A stretch of DNA of 48,777 nucleotides from an uncultured bacterium (GTDB taxonomy: Bacteria > Patescibacteriota > Minisyncoccia > Minisyncoccales > JAQTVQ01): NCBI GenBank assembly GCA_903839905.1, contig CAIMDX010000020.1, forward strand, positions 1-48,777, given 5' to 3'. Each line of letters begins with the position of its first letter. The stretch's first letter is position 1. Below the pieces are notes generated by a model that did no database searches, had not been told where the DNA came from, and saw only the letters and a program-made list of their open reading frames with translations. Positions 11,974 to 48,777 of this stretch are shown here, piece by piece. A program made the position numbers and the translations under genes.

Positions 11974-12336
11974 TCACAGGCCTGCCAAACCCAAGCTAAT
12001 CTCTAAGGATTGGTTAACTTTTTCCATTAAAGCCGAATCAAAAATCGCCAGTTTCTTCACTAAACGCTGTTTATCTATCGCCCGAATTTGATTAAGTAAA
12101 ACCACACACCTCTTATCCAAATCGCTCTGTTTGGCCTCCACAAACACCTCGGTCGGATAAATCCGCTCGCCAATCTGGGAAGTAATCGCGGCCACAATAG
12201 TTACAGGGCTATAGCGGTTTGCAATATCATTTTGAATAATCAAAGCTGGCCTCGTTTTTTTAATTTCCGAGCCAATAGTCGGATCAAAATTAACTAAATA
12301 AACCTCGCCTCGTTTTGGAATTATTTGCTTGGGCAT
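11974..12336 (-). CDS. mazF: Type II toxin, PemK/MazF-family endoribonuclease
   Basis: 120 aa. RGEVYLVNFDPTIGSEIKKTRPALIIQND and VTIVAAITS are the classical MazF/PemK core. Confidence 0.88.
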   Translation of the reverse strand: MPKQIIPKRGEVYLVNFDPTIGSEIKKTRPALIIQNDIANRYSPVTIVAAITSQIGERIYPTEVFVEAKQSDLDKRCVVLLNQIRAIDKQRLVKKLAIFDSALMEKVNQSLEISLGLAGL

Positions 12337-12599
12337 ATCTCATCATCAATTAAAAACCACTCTTCTACCAAATTCAAGTCCCGCGAAGCGTTAGCCATCG
12401 CCCCCTCTTTTAGCTGCTTTCTTAAATTAGCCTGGCTCATTTCCTTTGCGAAATAGCGAATCGCCTGGTCAACTAACCGGCTCCTGTCTCCTCGCTTAGC
12501 AATCTTTTCAAGCAATTTAACTGTTTCTTTTGGAAGAGTAATGTCTATCCGTTGATAAGTTGTAGAATTGTTTTGGGTTTCCATATTCTTATTATACAC
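12321..12599 (-). CDS. Ribbon-helix-helix (CopG-like) antitoxin
   Basis: 92 aa. IDITLPKETVKLLEKIAKRGDRSRLVDQAIRYF fits an RHH fold. It overlaps the toxin start by 16 nt. An alternative start is at 12584. Confidence 0.7.
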   Translation of the reverse strand: MYNKNMETQNNSTTYQRIDITLPKETVKLLEKIAKRGDRSRLVDQAIRYFAKEMSQANLRKQLKEGAMANASRDLNLVEEWFLIDDEICPSK

Positions 12600-12687
12600 A
12601 TTGCAAATGTGTAGTCAAATTTTACCCGTTTTCAAATTTTTTAAAACCCCAGCGGACCTTGCGGCTGGCTGGGGCGTTGATATCAAC

Positions 12688-12716
12688 AATAAGTTATGCC
12701 TCCATTCTATCAAAAA
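12688..12716 (-). promoter_or_regulatory. Conserved promoter/leader module P3 (TGATAGAAT)
   Basis: The minus strand reads TTTTTGATAGAATGGAGGCATAACTTATT, upstream of the RHH-MazF operon. Confidence 0.5.
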
Positions 12717-12723
12717 TCCCTAC

Positions 12724-12739
12724 CCTGCCAGTAGGCAGG
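12724..12739. repeat. GC-clamp hairpin CCTGCC-AGTA-GGCAGG
   Basis: Member of an 8-copy family. It is followed by a second hairpin, CCGCC-GGTT-GGCGG (12747-12760). Confidence 0.8.
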
Positions 12740-12833
12740 CGCCCTTCCGCCGGTTGGCGGATGTTAAGCGGCTGGAAGTTTGTCTAAAAACTAACGGCTG
12801 GAAACTGAGAACTATTTTGAACTTCGTTTAAAA

Positions 12834-12864
12834 TTGGGGTGGGCTGGTAGACGACGTTAGAACT
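12834..12864 (-). repeat. 30-nt conserved motif, copy C
   Basis: The minus strand reads AGTTCTAACGTCGTCTACCAGCCCACCCCAA, followed by the hairpin ATTTTAAAC-GAA-GTTCAAAAT. Confidence 0.65.
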
Positions 12865-12968
12865 AATATGCAAAAACAAAATGGATATATCATATGCATC
12901 CCGATTATCAAAGAGAGCGTGGCATCCCGACGCAGACTAATCATCGGTTAACAGTCCAACTCCCTTAT

Positions 12969-13412
12969 TCAAACGGCCTTATCTTTCATGCTGTCAAAAG
13001 CCTTAATAATGGTTTCACCGAACTCTTCATCAGAACAGTCATAATTCAAGCTCCCGAATTTACTTTGAATATGGAATCCACCATTTTTAACAATTTTATC
13101 AATCAAAATTTGTTTAGGATCTTCCAGGAATATAGTTACTATCAAGTAGAGTTTGCTTCGTTTAGCTTTAAGAATGCTTTCAACCTTATAGCTGTAACCA
13201 TCACTTAATTTAAAATCATCGCCACCGGCAATTTTATAAGCATTTCTTACCATGTAACCTAAAAACTTCAAATCGGGTAATGGATCGATTATTATTGCAT
13301 CTAACTGTCTTGTGGCTGGAATTTCTCGTCCATCGTATACCTCTACCGTATGTATATTTGGATATAATATGAATAATTTTTTACTTTTATGCACACCTAT
13401 TTTTATAAACAT
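12969..13412 (-). CDS. Hypothetical cytoplasmic protein (orphan)
   Basis: 147-aa ORF with no signal peptide and no motif I recognise. Third gene of a three-gene string downstream of tRNA-His. Confidence 0.55.
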   Translation of the reverse strand: MFIKIGVHKSKKLFILYPNIHTVEVYDGREIPATRQLDAIIIDPLPDLKFLGYMVRNAYKIAGGDDFKLSDGYSYKVESILKAKRSKLYLIVTIFLEDPKQILIDKIVKNGGFHIQSKFGSLNYDCSDEEFGETIIKAFDSMKDKAV

Positions 13413-13484
13413 ATTCTTATGACATTAAATTATTAACAATCTACTGTTTGATACTGGTAAAGGTAGTGCCAACAAAAAGTTTGC

Positions 13485-13790
13485 TTAACGTTTAGATATA
13501 TAATATAAAATTCCTTCCGTCATTCCTTTTATGGCTCTGTCGACATTATCTTGAGGCATCTCTTTATTTAAAAATATGCCTTCTAATTTTTTGGATATTG
13601 CTTCTTTGCTGCACGGACCAGCTTCAACTATTTTAATTACCTGCTCTATGTAGGAATCATATTCATTAGTCGGTGCCCATGCCCCATAAATAAGATTCCA
13701 TGGGTCCCAATATGCCAACATATTGTGGATATAATCATGTAGAGCAAGAGTCGATGAATTTTGTTGATAATTTTTATGTCCCTTTTCCAT
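13485..13790 (-). CDS. Hypothetical small protein, DUF1871/immunity-protein-like
   Basis: 101 aa. The WDPWNLIYGAWAPTNEYDSYIEQVIKIV pattern (WDP...EYD.Y) recalls YugE/DUF1871-type small helical proteins. The match is weak. Confidence 0.5.
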   Translation of the reverse strand: MEKGHKNYQQNSSTLALHDYIHNMLAYWDPWNLIYGAWAPTNEYDSYIEQVIKIVEAGPCSKEAISKKLEGIFLNKEMPQDNVDRAIKGMTEGILYYISKR

Positions 13791-13809
13791 ATAACTATAT
13801 TTATGAATA

Positions 13810-14229
13810 TTATTTAAATAAGTCTAGAATTTCTTTACCGCTATGAACAGTAATTGGATCTCCTAATGATTTAATCATATCTATCGGCAAGTTACTGATC
13901 GTATCAGCTAGACCGACAATTGGATGACTTCCCGGCCAATACAATACGTAATTATCCGATTTTAAAAAATCGTAAAGATAATCCCAAAATAGACCTCGTC
14001 CGGTTACTCGATTAATAGCCAAGCTGAGTAAATTTTCTGGATTGTTTTTATCTTCTGTAAGATAAAATTGGCCGCCATCTGGTATATTTTTTGAGAAATT
14101 AACATGCAAAAGATTAAATTCTGGCTCTTCTTTAATTATGTAAGGTTTTAATTTCTCTATTAATTTTGATTTGCTAAATGGTTCTATCTCTCCTTGTTTT
14201 GTTCGGCTTATAAATAATTCGCTGCTCAT
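13810..14229 (-). CDS. Hypothetical cytoplasmic protein (orphan)
   Basis: 139-aa ORF, first gene after module P4. Confidence 0.55.
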   Translation of the reverse strand: MSSELFISRTKQGEIEPFSKSKLIEKLKPYIIKEEPEFNLLHVNFSKNIPDGGQFYLTEDKNNPENLLSLAINRVTGRGLFWDYLYDFLKSDNYVLYWPGSHPIVGLADTISNLPIDMIKSLGDPITVHSGKEILDLFK

Positions 14230-14297
14230 ATTTGTTTTATTAATTCATCGGATAATAAAAAATGACCAATTTATCCAAATTAGCAATAATAATGGAT

Positions 14298-15140: not shown

Positions 15141-15175
15141 TTGACACTAATTTAACCAAAGTATATACTTTGGTT
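15141..15175 (+). promoter_or_regulatory. Promoter (TTGACA-17-TATACT) with overlapping 22-bp perfect palindromic operator
   Basis: -35 at 15141-15146 and -10 at 15164-15169. The palindrome AACCAAAGTATATACTTTGGTT spans 15154-15175 and ends at the antitoxin ATG (15176). Confidence 0.7.
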
Positions 15176-15451
15176 ATGAAAACAATCATTAATGTAAAAG
15201 CAGATAAAGATGTGAAAGAAGATGCCCAAAAACTAGCTAAAGATCTTGGGTTGTCTTTAAGCGCTGTTGTGAACGCCTACCTTAAGCAATTCGTTCGGAC
15301 CCGCCGGGTTGATTTTTCAATTGCCCCATCAATGTCCCCTGTCCTAGAAAAATTGCTAGGAGGGATAGAATTAGACATAAAAAAGAACCGCAATCTCTCT
15401 CCAGTGATGTCTTCCAAGAAAGATATTGATGATCGCCTTTCTTCTTTATGA
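15176..15451 (+). CDS. RelB/DinJ-family antitoxin
   Basis: 91 aa from the ATG at 15176 (the ORF track starts at a TTG at 15170). INVKADKDVKEDAQKLAKDLGLSLSAVVNAYLKQFV is a DinJ-like RHH N-terminus. Confidence 0.8.
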   Translation: MKTIINVKADKDVKEDAQKLAKDLGLSLSAVVNAYLKQFVRTRRVDFSIAPSMSPVLEKLLGGIELDIKKNRNLSPVMSSKKDIDDRLSSL

Positions 15452-15708
15452 TAGTCCACTTCCACAAAAATTTTGAAAAAAACTACCAAAGACTTGGAAA
15501 AGAAGAAAAAGAAAAGACAAAAAATCGCTTGAAAATATTCATGGATGATTCTTTCGGCCGCCAGCTAAATAACCACCCCCTAAAAGGAAAGTATGAGGAT
15601 TATCGCAGCATCAATATTTCGGGCGACTTGCGCGCTATCTATAAATATATAAGCGACAACGAGTGCGTTTTCGTGGAAATCGGCACACATAGCGAACTTT
15701 ATTCATAA
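15448..15708 (+). CDS. YafQ/RelE-family mRNA interferase toxin
   Basis: 86 aa. ATGA overlap with the antitoxin. NNHPLKGKYEDYRSINISGDLRAIY...IGTHSELY is the RelE/YafQ core. Confidence 0.8.
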   Translation: MIVHFHKNFEKNYQRLGKEEKEKTKNRLKIFMDDSFGRQLNNHPLKGKYEDYRSINISGDLRAIYKYISDNECVFVEIGTHSELYS

Positions 15709-15758: not shown

Positions 15759-16031
15759 CTATCTGACGGCGTCTTTTAAGCCTTTTCCTGCTTTAAATTT
15801 AGGAACAGTCATAGCCGGAATTTTTAAGGCTTCTCCGGTTTTCGGATTGCGGCCTGCGCGGGCGGCTCTTTTGGAAACTTTAAAAGTTCCGAAACCGGTC
15901 AAAGTAACCTGGTCTCCTTTTGATAAAGCTTTGGTAATTTCGTCAAGAATAATATCAATGGACTCGTTGGCTTGAGTTTTGGAAACAGCCAATTTTTTGA
16001 CTAATGCTTCAATTAATTCTGCTTTTGTCAT
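15759..16031 (-). CDS. hup: HU-family DNA-binding protein
   Basis: 90 aa. GFGTFKVSKRAARAGRNPKTGEALKIPA is the canonical HU arm. Confidence 0.92.
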   Translation of the reverse strand: MTKAELIEALVKKLAVSKTQANESIDIILDEITKALSKGDQVTLTGFGTFKVSKRAARAGRNPKTGEALKIPAMTVPKFKAGKGLKDAVR

Positions 16032-30386: not shown

Positions 30387-30561
30387 AAACGAAATATGCC
30401 TGCCGCGAAAATTTATTAGCTGGAGTATGTAAGCTAAAAAATATTAAAAATTCAACAAAATATATTTCTGCTATTTTATTTTAACAGATAAAGAACGGAC
30501 GGCAATGCGCCAAGGTGTGGATAACTGGAAAGCGTAAATAATGTAAAAATCAAAATGCCTA

Positions 30562-31230: not shown

Positions 31231-31824
31231 TTAAATATTTGCATCCTTTGTCTTTATCACTTCGTCTATCACGCCGTATTCCTTGGCTTCTTCCGCGGTC
31301 AGATAAAAATCTCGGTCAGTGTCTTTTTCTATCCGTTCTAACGGTTGTCCGGTATGCTTGACTAAGATTTTATTCAACCTGTCTTTAAGCTTCAGGATCT
31401 GTTTGGCCGTAATTTCTATTTCCGATGCCTGTCCGGTTACTCCGCCAGCCACTTGATGCAATAAAATCTCGGCATTAGGAAGAGAGTATCTCTTGCCTTT
31501 TTGGCCTGCGGCTAATAAAAATCCTCCCATGGAAGCGGCCATGCCAACGCAAACCGTTGATATTTCAGGCTTCACATATTGCATTGTATCGTAGACAGCC
31601 AATCCGGCAGTTACCGATCCGCCAGGGCTGTTAATATATATCTGAATGTCTTTCTTGGGGTCTTTTGACGCCAAAAACAACAACTGGGCGATAATGGAAT
31701 TAGCTAAAGAGTCGTTGACCGGCCCGGACAAAAGAATAATCCGGTCGCGCAAAAGCCTAGAGTATATATCGTAAGCCCTTTCGCCGGATTGGGTTTTTTC
31801 AATGACAGTTGGAATTAGGTTCAT
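31231..31824 (-). CDS. clpP: ATP-dependent Clp protease proteolytic subunit
   Basis: 197 aa. [20 protein letters not shown] (Ser nucleophile) and LLHQ (His) are canonical. Confidence 0.95.
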
Positions 31825-31894
31825 AATATTAGTCCTTTATTTTTATTGTATCAGAGAAACGTAAAGTGTAAAGCGAAAAGCGTAAAACAAAAGT

Positions 31895-31960: not shown

Positions 31961-32133
31961 TTTCAAATGTCAAAATCCAAATGTCTTATAGTCTATAAAG
32001 CCCCAATGACCAAATCCCAAATCCCAATGACCAAATCTTTCGTTTTTCGGGTTTTTTGGAAATTGAGATTTGATTGGGCATTGGACATTGGGGCTTGGGA
32101 TTTAAATTCAATAATTTGAAATTGAAAATCATT
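31961..32133. repeat. Long imperfect low-complexity palindrome
   Basis: The left arm is rich in CCCAAT/GACCAAATC words (31999-32037). The right arm is their complement (32065-32096). The outer arms are TTTCAAAT-type words. The loop is TTTCGTTTTTCGGG. Confidence 0.7.
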
Positions 32134-32161: not shown

Positions 32162-33418
32162 TTATAGTCCTAAGGCTTTAAACGCGTTCTCCTGCTTGAT
32201 CTCGTCTTCAACATAGGCCGAAAGCTTCTCCAGGCTGGCTCCTTTTTCAGCGGCTTTAAGGTCGGGATAATAGCTTAACATCGCGTTCACCCTTTCTTCT
32301 ATTTGTTCGGCGCTGGCCTCGGTTTTTTCCTGTTTGGCAATTTCGCGCAAAATCAAAAAGTTTTTTACGCGCTTTTTAGCCGCCTCTTCCACCTCTTTTT
32401 CAAAATCAACCTCGGTTTTGTTGATCTGTTTAAGATATTCTTCAAAGCTTATGCCTAAATTCTGCGCAACCTGGTCCTTGGCGCTGTGCATCATTTGATG
32501 CGCCTCTTTCTCTATTAATATCTGAGGCAATTCAACCTCAACTTCTTTAGCAATTTCAGTCAAAAAATTCTCTCTTTGCCTTTGAATCTCGGCCATCTTT
32601 TTTTCTTCCATAATCCCCTCTTTGATATTATTCTTTAAAGCCTCAACAGTCTCAAATTTACCCAAAGTTTTAACAAATTCATCATTAACTTCCGGCAATT
32701 CAAGCTTTTTAACAGCTTTCATCTCCACTTTTACCTTTAATATCTTGGCAGGCTCTTCTTTGGAATTAAAATCAACTTCTTTTGATTCATCGGCAGACAT
32801 TCCGACCAGGCTAGCTTCAAACTCCTTGGGATAATTGCCTTTGCCTAAAATAAAGCCGTCATCGCGGGGCTTTCCCCCTTCAATTTCCGAGGAAGAAAAG
32901 CTGATTTCAACAAAATCCTCGTTTTGAGCAGGCCCTGCTTTATCGGTCAGAGTCGCTCTGGACTTTTGAATATTAGAGACAGTTTCCTCTATTTCTTTGT
33001 CTTCAACTTTAATTTCTTTTTTCTCAACCTTTTGGGCAATGGCTTTGTATCCAGGCAATTCAAATTCCGGCATCGCTTCAAACTCAGCTGAAAAAAGAAG
33101 TTCGTTCTCTTTGGCCAGTTTTAACAGCTCTATTTGGGGCTGGGAAACCACCTCTATCTTCTGCTGGGCCAAATCTTTAATAGCTTTTGGCCAAAGGTCA
33201 TCAATAGCCAAAGTAGCTGCTTCAATTAAAAGTTTTTCCGGATCCAAACTGGCTTCAATCATGGTAATCGGAGCTTGACCTTTGCGAAATCCCGGCAATT
33301 CAATTTCTTTACTAAGGCTGAAAAGAGCCTTTTCGTAAAAAGACTTGAATTCGTCCCAAGCCTGCTCAACTTCTATTTTGACTTTTATCTTCTTATTCTC
33401 TTTAATTGTCAGTTTCAT
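32162..33418 (-). CDS. tig: Trigger factor
   Basis: 418 aa. N-terminal ribosome-binding motif GFRKGQAP. Acidic helical C-terminal domain. Lies upstream of clpP. Confidence 0.9.
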   Translation of the reverse strand: MKLTIKENKKIKVKIEVEQAWDEFKSFYEKALFSLSKEIELPGFRKGQAPITMIEASLDPEKLLIEAATLAIDDLWPKAIKDLAQQKIEVVSQPQIELLKLAKENELLFSAEFEAMPEFELPGYKAIAQKVEKKEIKVEDKEIEETVSNIQKSRATLTDKAGPAQNEDFVEISFSSSEIEGGKPRDDGFILGKGNYPKEFEASLVGMSADESKEVDFNSKEEPAKILKVKVEMKAVKKLELPEVNDEFVKTLGKFETVEALKNNIKEGIMEEKKMAEIQRQRENFLTEIAKEVEVELPQILIEKEAHQMMHSAKDQVAQNLGISFEEYLKQINKTEVDFEKEVEEAAKKRVKNFLILREIAKQEKTEASAEQIEERVNAMLSYYPDLKAAEKGASLEKLSAYVEDEIKQENAFKALGL

Positions 33419-33483
33419 ATAATTCTAATATCACTATTTATAATAAGCCAGAAGGCTTGCAAGGGTTAGACCCTTGTACAAAT

Positions 33484-33700
33484 TGACGCGCGTCATTTTT
33501 GGTTAATGCGCGTCATGTCGCGCACTGTCGCGCTCCAATTTTGTTTGTCGCGCATCATGTCGCGCTTGTCGCGCACCTGTCGCGAATCATTTTTACTTGG
33601 CGCGCACTGTCGCGCATCGTGTCGCGCACTATGTCGCGACAAAACATAACTGTCGCGCATCATCCCAGAAAGGATTTAATCCTCTCTACGATTGACGCGC
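33484..33700 (+). repeat. Phased array of TG(T/A)CGCG(C/A) octamers
   Basis: Ten direct TGTCGCG(C/A) copies start at 33516, 33526, 33546, 33558, 33567, 33578, 33608, 33620, 33632 and 33651. TGACGCGC variants are at 33484 (palindromic TGACGCGCGTCA), 33507 (inverted) and 33693. Confidence 0.9.
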
Positions 33701-33701
33701 T

Positions 33702-35003
33702 TTACTTTTCAGTTTTGGCTTTGGGCTTCTTGGCCTTGACTGGTTTTTTGGCTTTTTTATCAGTCTTAGCCTCTTTTCCCTCCTCTTCTTTGTTTTCTGC
33801 TTGCTCAATGGATGGCGTTTCTTTTTCTTCTGTATTTTCCTGCTGGGCTTCAGCCTTCCTCTCTTCCAACTGTTCCGGGCTTTTAACATCAATCTTCCAG
33901 CCGGTCAATTTAGCCGCCAGCCGGACATTCTGCCCTTCACGGCCGATGGCCAAAGACAATTGGTCGCTAGGCACCACCACTAAAGCAGTATTTTTGGGCA
34001 AAACTTGAACTTCAATAACTTTAGCCGGCGAAAGAGCGTTAGCCACATATTTTTCCGTTTGATCAGAGTATTCAACAATATCAATCTTCTCTCCGCCCAG
34101 CTCGGATATAACGGCAGAAACCCTCACTCCTCTTTGGCCAACCATGGCGCCGATAGGATCAACGCCTTCGGCCAAAGAAGCTACGGAAACCTTGGTCCTG
34201 GAACCGGCTTCGCGGGCAATAGCTTTGATTTCAATCTGGCCGGCGGAAATTTCAGGCACTTCCAGCTCAAAAAGCTTAGAAATCAGCTTGGGATAAGCGC
34301 GGGACAATAGAATAAAAGGCCCGCGGGAGCTTTCTTCCACTTTTATCACGAAAACTTTAAGCCTTTGGCCGGAACGATAAAACTCCCCCCTTACCTGCTC
34401 TTCTCTGGGCAAATAGCCCAATGTTTTGCCGATATCCAAATAAAGGCCGCCGGATTCCACTCTTTGGATAATGCCGGAAAGAATGTCCCCTTCTTTGGAT
34501 TTGTATTCTTCCATGATGCCGATTCTTTCCGCTTCCCTTATTTTCTGAAGCACAACCTGTTTGGCGGTTTGCGAAGCAATACGGCCAAAATCGGTCTTTT
34601 CTTCCAAGGGAAAGATCAATTCTGTTCCGGATTCCACTTTTTTGTCTATTTTTTTAGCCTCGTCAAGCATAATATGCTTTTCCGGATTGAATCTGACTTT
34701 TTTTACTTCCCCTTCAGCTGCCGCCTCTTCGGCTTCCAGCTCTCCTTCGGTTTTATTCTTCAAATCTTCAAGCTCCGCTTCGGAATAGATCGTTGAATCA
34801 TCAACCACGATCTTTACTTGCCAAAAATTAACTTTGCCAAGCTTAGAATCAAGGCTGGCTTTGATGATCTGGCCTTTTTGGCCATATTCCTTTTTATAAG
34901 CCGCGGCTAAAGCCTGCTCGGTGATCTCAATCACCTTTTCCTGCGGCAAAGCTTTTTCTTCCGCGATTTGGGCGATCGCTGACGCAAATGATTTTAGATC
35001 CAT
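33702..35003 (-). CDS. nusA: Transcription termination/antitermination factor NusA
   Basis: 433 aa with N-terminal, S1 and two KH domains ([17 protein letters not shown]), plus a Lys/Glu-rich C-terminal tail. Confidence 0.92.
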
Positions 35004-35170
35004 ATTATTTTATCAGCCTTCAGCCGAAACGGCCTTTAGGCTTAATGATTATTTTTAAATTATTTATATTTTTTTAAAAAAAGACCGGGTTCAGCCGGGC
35101 ATGGTCATCAAAATCTGTCATTAACTATTGCCATAATAACAGAAAGAGGAAGCCTGTCAAGGCTAGCGAT

Positions 35171-35310
35171 ATAAAATGTAAAAATTAAAATGCAAAATGA
35201 CAATTTAAAATTTCAAAATTTTCGTTTCGGGCATTTTAACATTTTAATTTGTCATTTTGATTTTTGCCTGCCGGTAGGCAGGATATTTGCATTTTAAATT
35301 ATCGTTTTAT
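35171..35310. repeat. Long low-complexity palindrome with GC clamp
   Basis: Arms built of AAAATG/TAAAAT words (35171-35220 versus 35232-35265). Loop TTCGTTTCGGG. CCTGCC-GGTA-GGCAGG at 35267-35282. Confidence 0.7.
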
Positions 35311-35393
35311 CCTTTGCCCTTTTCGTTTTTTTCAACTAAAGTATAATTAAGAAGCTAGCCATAATAATATTTCAGTTTCACAGGTTTAAAGAA

Positions 35394-42032: not shown

Positions 42033-42101
42033 TCCTGGAAAGGGTTTTACTTACTTCAGGAGGGGTTAGATCCCTCCTAGAATAAACATCCTAAACAAAA
42101 A

Positions 42102-46790: not shown

Positions 46791-46929
46791 AAAATCCCAA
46801 ACCCCAATGTCCAATGACCAACCAAATCCAAATTTCCAAAACCCCTGCCGGCAGGCAGGCCAAAACGAACGATTTGGTCATTGGGATTTAGGATTTGGTT
46901 GGGCTTTGGGATTTGGTCATTGGGATTTC
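46791..46929. repeat. Long low-complexity palindrome centred on a GC clamp
   Basis: Arms of AATCCCAA/CCAATGACC words and their complements. Centre CCTGCC-GGCA-GGCAGG (46844-46859). Confidence 0.75.
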
Positions 46930-46971
46930 ATTAGGTCAATTAGATATTAGAAATTAAAAATTTAATAGCTT

Positions 46972-48715: not shown

Positions 48716-48777
48716 AAAATTTCTAATTAACCTAATTTCTAAACAAATCCCAAACCCCAATGTCCAAATCCCAAATA
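48716..48777. repeat. Start of another low-complexity word element (truncated by the window edge)
   Basis: AATTTCTAATTAACCTAATTTCTAAACAAATCCCAAACCCCAATGTCCAAATCCCAAATA reuses the words seen at 37041-37090 and 46791-46830. Confidence 0.6.

Follow-up and report, generated by a model that had tools for sequence, protein, structure and literature searches.

A conserved, helically phased array of direct-repeat boxes in the nusA-tig spacer of a Candidatus Paceibacterota lineage as a putative protein-binding element

The 48,777-nucleotide contig CAIMDX010000020.1 (the window, that is, the whole stretch of DNA analyzed) originates from an uncultured bacterium that trigger-factor homologues place in Candidatus Paceibacterota, within the candidate phyla radiation (CPR, or Patescibacteria). 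Pfam matches identified the genes nusA, tig (trigger factor), and clpP, all on the minus strand, and the 283-bp spacer between nusA and tig (33419–33701) contains an array of short repeated boxes, which is the subject of this work. The setting described in the initial annotation, which had been made by reading the letters of this DNA, was found as described, directly upstream of tig-clpP and 1.5 kb from a switch of coding strand (35004–35393). No par genes adjoin the array. The spacer is not AT-rich overall, as had been assumed, since its GC content is 0.48 versus 0.42 for the window; the boxes are GC-rich and the short inter-box spacers are AT-rich. The coordinates of all features are given in Table 1.

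Table 1. Genes, boxes, and flanking elements of the nusA-tig spacer region in window coordinates
Feature	Position	Strand	Details
nusA	33702–35003	-	433 aa; stop codon 33702–33704; Pfam
tig, trigger factor	32162–33418	-	418 aa; Pfam
clpP	31231–31824	-	197 aa; Pfam
Whole box array	33484–33700	-	13 gene-sense boxes and 3 antisense copies
Box block A, six sense boxes	33516–33585	-	plus-strand TGTCGCG starts 33516, 33526, 33546, 33558, 33567, 33578
Box block B, four sense boxes	33608–33658	-	plus-strand TGTCGCG starts 33608, 33620, 33632, 33651; includes palindrome TGTCGCGACA
Palindrome TGTCGCGACA	33632–33641		within block B
Variant box GCGCGCCA (plus strand TGGCGCGC)	33598–33605	-	from sequence reading
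Antisense box, plus strand GCGCGTCA	33508–33515	+	TGACGCGC variant
Palindrome TGACGCGCGTCA, promoter-proximal	33484–33495	.	two overlapping boxes, one per orientation; TGACGCGC variant
Distal box GCGCGTCA	33693–33700	-	TGACGCGC variant; begins 2 nt past the nusA stop
Imperfect hairpin/palindrome past nusA, sense AGAGAGGATTAAATCCTTTCT	33665–33688	-	without T-run; counterparts in L005, L135, L143
Palindrome CAAGGGT-TAG-ACCCTTG	33460–33476	.	3-nt center; between array and tig promoter
Predicted tig -10 element, sense TTATAAAT	33437–33445	-	from alignment only

On the minus strand, which is the gene-sense strand, the box consensus is (G)CGCG(A/T/C)CA, corresponding to TG[T/A/G]CGCG on the plus strand. 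The ten same-orientation copies of TGTCGCG, their division into two blocks, and the length of the spacer all read as reported initially, with start-to-start spacings of 10, 20, 12, 9, and 11 bp in the first block, then 30 bp, and then 12, 12, and 19 bp in the second. The estimate of about 13 boxes also agrees with our count of gene-sense copies. The flanking variants include the expected palindrome at 33484 and direct copy at 33693, but the inverted copy starts at 33508 rather than 33507. The distal box is separated from the next one by 42 bp, equal to four helical turns, and the palindrome at the opposite, promoter-proximal end may act as a nucleation or dimer site.

The density of boxes in the spacer far exceeds expectation. 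TGTCGCG occurs 14 times in the window versus 2.79 ± 1.47 expected, a number reached in 0 of 100 shuffled sequences, and 11 of these copies fall in the nusA-tig spacer. For the octamer TGWCGCGM, 16 copies were counted versus 3.0 expected, 15 of them inside the spacer. In a sliding 250-bp scan the array was the top k-mer cluster of the window, with one 6-mer present 10 times versus 5–6 times in the runner-up. Neither the window nor about 130 kb of relatives' flanking DNA contained a second array, and outside the spacer the box occurs there at background frequency. The array is a real feature and the sole one of its kind in the 48.8 kb. In a search of 185,579 species genomes for three CGCGWCA copies separated by 2–6 nucleotides (CGCGWCA-N{2,6} x3), none of the at least 120 matches listed belonged to Patescibacteria, and these matches were chance or coding occurrences in high-GC genomes. 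A literature search on the box strings and on CPR regulatory motifs and origins found nothing relevant.

Comparison with relatives, whose contigs or loci carry L numbers (L005, L007, etc.), showed that the array is conserved in position. The trigger factors of the relatives compared were 80, 77, 76, 69, 68, 67, 67, and 64–65% identical to that of the window organism, and all fetched relatives have the order CCA-adding enzyme (-), nusA (+), spacer, tig (+), and, further on, clpP (+). Nine species-level arrays of 7–14 boxes each were found, all in the orthologous nusA-tig spacer and in gene-sense orientation; the alignment of orthologous spacers proposed as a check thus placed the array at the same position and orientation in the relatives. 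Every array contains one to three inverted copies or palindromes, and in six of the nine species the first box lies 2–6 nt past the nusA stop codon. The box itself varies between species. The window organism, L005, L135, and L143 have GCGCGACA, with a mixture of GCGCG[A/T/C]CA boxes in L135; L007 and L008 have CCGCGACA, arranged in units of 11 bp and 9 bp that are nearly perfect; L130 and L133 have ATCGTGACA and TCGCGACA; L129 and L132 have (A)TGGGACA together with a few CGTGACA and GAGACA; L131 and L134 have ACTGCGCCA and ACTGTGACA. The resulting species-level variants are CGCGACA, CGTGACA, TGGGACA, and TGCGCCA. Collection of boxes across species with the single loose pattern YGNGNCA yielded 101 boxes in the nine arrays (28–59 per kb) versus a background of 1.0–1.3 per kb on each strand elsewhere in the loci; the constancy of the G, G, and CA positions is not evidence in itself, because the pattern fixes them.

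Within species the spacer is stable, being 100% identical in five independent assemblies of the window organism and within the pairs L005/L006 and L129/L132. L007 and L008, which come from two samples, have identical tig genes and spacers of 194 and 183 bp by gene calls, and the 11-bp difference corresponds to one repeat unit, as judged by eye. Spacers of close species differ by unit-sized indels. As the array evolves, whole units are thus gained and lost, and the box sequence changes in concert. In more distant relatives with 43–51% identical trigger factors (L137–139, L141, and L142), the same CCA|nusA-tig-clpP order was found without the array; nusA, tig, and clpP are packed with gaps of 2–11 bp, and the nusA-tig gap is 2–9 bp. 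Because of this tight organization, the array is a lineage-specific derived insertion splitting the ancestral nusA-tig-clpP operon, and it arose in one genus- or family-level clade. In this array-bearing clade the tig-clpP and CCA|nusA gaps are also expanded and filled with other repeats.

This expansion of all neighboring intergenic gaps, which are filled with species-specific short repeats and long palindromes, would also fit a non-functional minisatellite with a 9–12 bp unit, generated by replication slippage in a gap that opened in this clade and homogenized by unequal exchange, without any specific binder. Same-orientation copies are the default outcome of tandem duplication, and the near-perfect 11-bp tandem units of L007, whose spacer exceeds that of L008 by about 11 bp, fit such an origin. 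Three contigs (ERZ1426827/ERZ1426824, from the window organism or a strain with a 94%-identical trigger factor) end about 420–480 nt upstream of tig, near the array, which hints at strain heterogeneity or assembly trouble there. Nevertheless, we consider a minisatellite quite unlikely. One position has been kept over nine species, down to 64% trigger-factor identity, in streamlined genomes, while the gap in the sister lineage is 2–9 bp. An unbiased k-mer count gave top 7-mers that are all in the box register (CGCGACA 10 times, GCGCGAC 8 times, and TGCGCGA 6 times), while 7-mers extending into the 2–5 nt inter-box spacers occurred no more than 3–4 times. The 7–9 nt core is thus conserved, while the inter-box spacers differ in both sequence and length, a contrast that a duplicated unit decaying uniformly would not produce, and Tandem Repeats Finder reports only fragments of 2–2.8 copies instead of a uniform tandem repeat. 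The presence of inverted copies in every array, the identity of the sequence across independent samples of the same species, and a mean period that stays the same despite turnover of the boxes also speak against this explanation. Even a persistent minisatellite would still be a warning about the repeat-rich intergenic DNA of this clade.

The mean period is close to the helical repeat of DNA. Across the arrays the box spacings are 7–14 bp, or 19–22, 31–32, and 39–42 bp, with no values between these classes. Rayleigh analysis revealed one shared optimum period of 10.4–10.5 bp with a mean R of 0.78 (0.78–0.89 in seven of eight arrays, L131 being the exception); at 11.0 bp the mean R drops to 0.24, although the commonest single spacing is 12 bp. 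The summed phasing statistic gave p = 5e-5 against a null of uniform 8–13 bp per turn. The shared period means that the boxes lie, on average, on one face of B-DNA, as the proposal of helical phasing had implied, and the support for phasing is moderate. It is the main argument for a function at the level of DNA rather than RNA.

The tig gene has a -10-like element, (G)ATTATAAAT or GGCATAATTT, that reads TATAAA or CATAAT and is kept in relatives 18–30 nt upstream of the ATG codon. No good -35 element was found 16–18 bp from it, and the leader is short and without a Shine-Dalgarno sequence. In L130 and L133 the last box, GCGACA, is located exactly 16 bp upstream of CATAAT. In the region 35048–35160 (minus strand), nusA has a strong, near-consensus promoter, TTGACA-16-TATTAT with an upstream TG, which is followed in the leader by a hairpin with a T7–8 terminator (CCGGnTGAnCCCGG TTTTTTT). 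Comparison of the CCA|nusA gaps of L005, L007, L130, L131, L141, and L142 showed that this terminator is kept in all relatives, including the array-less outgroup, and it is probably a NusA autoregulatory attenuator. Its conservation indicates that canonical intrinsic terminators are in use in the window organism.

The array does not match any of the known regulator sites tested. The tests used consensus strings of the operators, that of MraZ being taken from PMC12957436. Operators of CtsR, CIRCE/HrcA, HAIR/HspR, and ClgR had no match in the spacer even with 1–4 mismatches, and the Pho box, the WalR site TGTWAH-N5-TGTWAH, and the Bacillus subtilis PhoP site TTHACA-N5-TTHACA were not found in 33300–33800. 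The MraZ pattern GTGK-N6 x3 had 0 matches in the window, and no parS site was identified. DnaA boxes (TTATCCACA-like, up to one mismatch) were missing both in the spacer and in the strand-switch gap, while such 9-mers occur 22 times in the window versus 11.5 expected; this enrichment elsewhere suggests that the canonical DnaA box is in use. The mismatch of the array with the DnaA, CtsR, CIRCE, parS, and Pho boxes, noted initially, was thus borne out and extended to further consensus sites. Among Rfam families only tRNAs reached gathering thresholds in the window; a weak match (E = 0.4) was located inside tig and none on the array. The suggestion that the CGCG core is a methyltransferase target, or a site subject to restriction avoidance, was rejected: CGCG is not avoided in the window (observed/expected ratio of 1.2), and the TGGGACA arrays of relatives contain no CGCG. 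A coding function was rejected as well. The plus-strand open reading frame (ORF) at 33499–34008 dismissed in the initial annotation does exist and is antisense to nusA, and gene callers put ORFs of 48–56 aa across the array, but the boxes are not spaced in multiples of three, so none of the reading frames is conserved.

The architecture of the array is nevertheless reminiscent of several known systems, and its likening to parC/parH-type sites or to head-to-tail sites of winged-helix regulators remains the best available analogy. The parC site of plasmid R1 contains ten 11-bp repeats in direct orientation, five in each of two groups, and a single ParR dimer binds to each repeat (PMC2241845). 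In parH of TP228, 11 of the 12 degenerate boxes are direct and one is inverted; AT-rich spacers separate them, and ParG, a ribbon-helix-helix protein, coats the boxes cooperatively (PMC3130281). The array shares with these sites the organization into about 10–12 short, mostly direct boxes with an occasional inverted copy and short AT-rich spacers; at least about eight regularly spaced, mostly direct boxes are characteristic of such sites, and the array has 13 sense and 3 antisense boxes at 10.4–10.5 bp. One dimer per box, cooperative coating, a promoter-adjacent location, and a system-specific repeat are features of parC and parH to which the array is likened from its sequence alone. Unlike them, it is chromosomal, lies between housekeeping genes, and lacks adjoining genes for a binding protein or an NTPase. 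The omega heptads of pSM19035 are related ribbon-helix-helix centromere/operator arrays. The array differs from parC, parH, and omega sites in having a box of 7–9 bp with spacers of 2–5 nt and a mean period of 10.45 bp instead of a rigid 11-, 8-, or 7-bp lattice.

Operators of the OmpR/PhoB family include the TT(A/T/C)ACA repeats of B. subtilis PhoP and the 11-nt direct-repeat units of Streptomyces PhoP. Head-to-tail boxes of 6–7 bp, a period of about 10–11 bp, and one orientation relative to the promoter are common to these operators and the array. OmpR/PhoB arrays can extend upstream from the -35 element, and the array box ends in ACA like a -35 element. The differences are the absence of a consensus match, a length greater than usual (13 boxes over 210 bp), a variable distance to the promoter, no sign of a regulon, given the background frequency of the box elsewhere, and no response-regulator gene seen in the examined DNA. 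Plasmid iterons are 17–22 bp long. Arrays of DnaA boxes or iterons resemble ours in having same-orientation boxes about 9–11 bp apart near a strand switch, but the array has no TTATCCACA-like boxes and no dnaA or rep gene nearby, and it is absent from relatives with the same gene order. An iteron of plasmid type was rejected, the conserved unit being only 7–9 bp at a spacing of about 10.5 bp, with no Rep family match in the window. Finally, MraZ operators consist of 3–4 GTG(G/T) boxes with 6-nt spacers located upstream of mraZ and bound by a ring-shaped octamer (PMC12957436). They are similar to the array in that a cooperative oligomer engages several short direct boxes one helical turn apart, while the array has 7–14 boxes with a CGCGACA core upstream of tig.

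Given its architecture, nearest to that of parC and parH (PMC2241845, PMC3130281), the array could be a chromosomal centromere-like partition site, or an iteron-like site for titration or loading of an initiator near an origin at the strand switch. The status of sole array in all DNA examined and the fast concerted change of the box, as for a dedicated protein-site pair, are consistent with this possibility; ParR-parC pairs are likewise reported to fall into specific families (PMC9426499). Close to the array, moreover, the coding strands diverge at a conserved point, and the GC and AT skews change there. However, such a role appears quite unlikely. None of rep, par (parA, parM, parR), dnaA, or regulator genes was found in the window or in the relatives' flanks, nor dnaN in the window; parS is missing, and neither the array nor the strand switch has a cluster of DnaA boxes, which are enriched elsewhere. 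The array-less relatives keep the strand switch in a gap of 132–144 bp containing the nusA promoter and the leader terminator; therefore, the switch is probably just a divergent promoter region. The GC-skew change is accompanied by an AT-skew flip and tracks the coding strand, which, together with the content of the outgroup gap, makes an origin at the strand switch unlikely. Nor would a basic cell-cycle function be likely to occur in only one genus- or family-level clade. The iteron reading of the initial annotation was not supported, and the hypothesis of an origin at this locus was rejected.

By our analysis, the array is a real, conserved, and unusual element that can be described as a phased direct-repeat array, putatively protein-binding and of putative function. 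We tentatively favor the reading, to which we would give not quite an even chance, that it is a DNA-level platform for a cooperative, sequence-specific, oligomerizing putative DNA-binding protein, possibly of the ribbon-helix-helix or winged-helix type. A dedicated protein-site pair is preferred over a broad regulon because the box changes in concert and no dispersed copies are present in the examined DNA. Each protomer or dimer would read one heptamer, CGCGACA in the window genome and YGNGNCA-type sequences elsewhere. As the boxes average one turn, about 8–14 protomers would align on one face of about 200 bp of DNA, and their assembly would probably nucleate at the palindromic box pair or pairs. 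The nucleoprotein complex would occupy the DNA from the nusA end to the tig promoter and could set tig-clpP transcription by recruiting polymerase to the -35-less promoter, by occluding it, or by blocking read-through from nusA. Judged by its position, the array probably controls or insulates the tig-clpP unit formed by the operon split. Every step of this mechanism is a proposal, as are the binding itself, the type of protein, and the way in which tig-clpP would be affected.

Several observations weigh against a protein platform on DNA. Across species, the tig -10 element lies anywhere from 16 to about 60 bp from the last box, sometimes with palindromes between them, so a fixed activator geometry is not conserved. 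The arrays are not independent samples because of their shared ancestry, and against resampled pooled spacings the phasing is only a modest gain (p = 0.035). The missing partition, replication, and regulator genes count here as well, and the data cover about 5% of one genome and 8–21 kb per relative. Since other short-period repeats are present in neighboring intergenic regions of the array clade, a general repeat-making mutational tendency is possible. Finally, no intrinsic (T-tract) terminator was found 3' of nusA, so the array is probably transcribed, and folding of the array as sense-strand RNA gave z-scores of -7.1, -4.1, -3.7, -5.4, and -8.0 versus shuffles in five species.

The last two points bear on an alternative in which the array functions as RNA, being transcribed as the nusA 3' untranslated region or as nusA-tig intercistronic RNA. 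We regard a function at the RNA level as unlikely, though not implausible. In such a mechanism, the repeated heptamers, together with hairpins formed by direct and inverted copies, would be the target of an RNA-binding protein or would serve as a signal for pausing, processing, or stability that uncouples tig-clpP from nusA. The start of the array immediately after the nusA stop codon in most species, the lack of a terminator there in an organism that uses one in the nusA leader, the folds in all five species tested, which are much more stable than those of shuffles, and the constant transcribed orientation of all boxes favor this alternative. On the other hand, a helical period of B-DNA has no meaning for RNA, the predicted fold shapes vary between species because the inverted copies are at different places, and the low z-scores arise because the repeats pair with their own inverted copies. 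No Rfam family matches, and the array lacks the C-rich, G-poor composition expected of a Rho-utilization site.

A bolder form of the DNA-level reading is that of a lineage-specific nucleoprotein array, with about a dozen helically phased boxes coated by an oligomerizing protein that co-evolves with them, much as plasmid centromeres change together with their binding proteins, and acting as an insulator or switch between nusA and tig-clpP, or as a centromere-like site; we think this improbable, though not negligibly so. If true, it would represent a class of element, regulatory or architectural, new to minimal, regulator-poor bacteria. Very few transcription factors are recognizable in CPR bacteria, and their regulation and chromosome organization are almost uncharted, so a 283-bp spacer offers a concrete lead to a putative DNA-binding protein in this group. 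The nine natural variants represent a ready specificity series for studying protein-site co-evolution, and the arrays record the splitting and rewiring of a compact ancestral nusA-tig-clpP operon.

Two ORFs of the window were considered as candidates for the binding protein and rejected: the 125-aa product encoded upstream of clpC is a hydrophobic membrane protein, and the 195-aa product encoded after clpP carries a transmembrane segment or signal peptide at its N-terminus. Genes for ribbon-helix-helix partition proteins were not found in the window or flanks, where the neighbors of the array are nusA, tig, clpP, and the gene for the CCA-adding enzyme. The window encodes an HU-like protein, recognized by eye; such a non-specific DNA bender could assist any wrapped complex.

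Palindromes with a 3-nt center of the type AAGGG(G)T-CTA-ACCC(C)TT occur around the array in several species. In the window they are located at 33460–33476 and 42058–42078, the latter including a resembling palindrome 3' of clpC (42061–42075), and they are also present in the spacers of L005, L130, L133, L135, and L143. The copy at 33460–33476 is kept in L005, L135, and L143 and is placed after nusA in L130 and L133. The palindromes thus stand before the tig promoter, after nusA, or after clpC, flanking the array in species-variable order. A T-run is missing from all of them, L005 has the opposite orientation, and a role as operators or RNA stem-loops is conceivable.

Other heptamer repeats precede the genes of this region. 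Contiguous 7-bp repeats are found directly upstream of start codons or promoters in the window (31860–31886, clpP) and in L130 (about 12520–12600), where CTTTACG is repeated 4–5 times before clpP, with one of the copies able to act as a TTTACA -35 element. Three relatives (L007, L129, and L131) have clpP leaders of the form CTACAAG-CTACAAG-CTAATTC-CTAATTC, and the CTAATTC unit also occurs upstream of tig in a more distant relative (the L137–139 tig leader). Species-specific heptamer arrays forming long AT-rich inverted repeats are located just upstream of the nusA -35 element, in the window at 35172–35247. They consist of AAAATGN in the window, CGTAAAG in L005, and GAAACTT in L129 and L143, with similar arrays in the gaps of L130 and L131, and are absent from the outgroup with its CCA|nusA gap of 132–144 bp.

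Viral contigs were also scanned for CGCGACA x3 and TGGGACA x3, and the loci inspected were unrelated to the array. L194 contains coding repeats, and L264 and L270 have inverted arrays of the 9-bp unit CTGGGACAA x3. The latter two are high-GC phages from IMG/VR, in which two inverted contiguous CTGGGACAA triplets surround a GC-rich core of about 90 bp (L264, 3398–3536; L270, 2033–2183). About a dozen more viral contigs in the same scan showed paired plus- and minus-strand matches about 100 bp apart. The CTGGGACAA arrays, which have no relation to that of the CPR lineage, probably serve the phages as an operator or origin.

The window also contains another repeat family, unrelated to the array, with three intergenic copies at about 31995–32100 (the tig-clpP spacer), 46795–46930, and 48744–48777 (truncated where the window ends). 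Its members are long palindromes, imperfect and with arms of about 50 nt composed of CCCAA/CCAAATC-type heptamers, for example AAATCCCAAxCCCCAATGTCCAATG...loop...GATTTGGTCATTGGGATTTGG, and they look like repetitive extragenic palindromic (REP) or miniature inverted-repeat transposable element (MITE) hairpins. In relatives the tig-clpP gap carries genes missing from the window, namely those for 23S_rRNA_IVP/bAvd-like four-helix proteins and an MNT-HEPN (NTP_transf_2 + HepT) pair (L005, 11429–12274; L129, 3998–4366; L130, 11344–12526; L131, 11373–11747), and it seems to be an insertion hot spot.

Elsewhere in the window, a region at 12113–14279 has six DnaA-like boxes within 2.2 kb, along with small unannotated ORFs, a toxin-antitoxin pair, and tRNA genes; the sole perfect DnaA box of the window is located at 30516. 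The window further encodes a MazF/PemK toxin with an upstream small ORF as its apparent antitoxin (11974–12599), a second apparent toxin-antitoxin pair (15170–15708), and the HU-like protein (15759–16031); of these, only MazF/PemK had a Pfam match, and the others were judged by eye from their translations.

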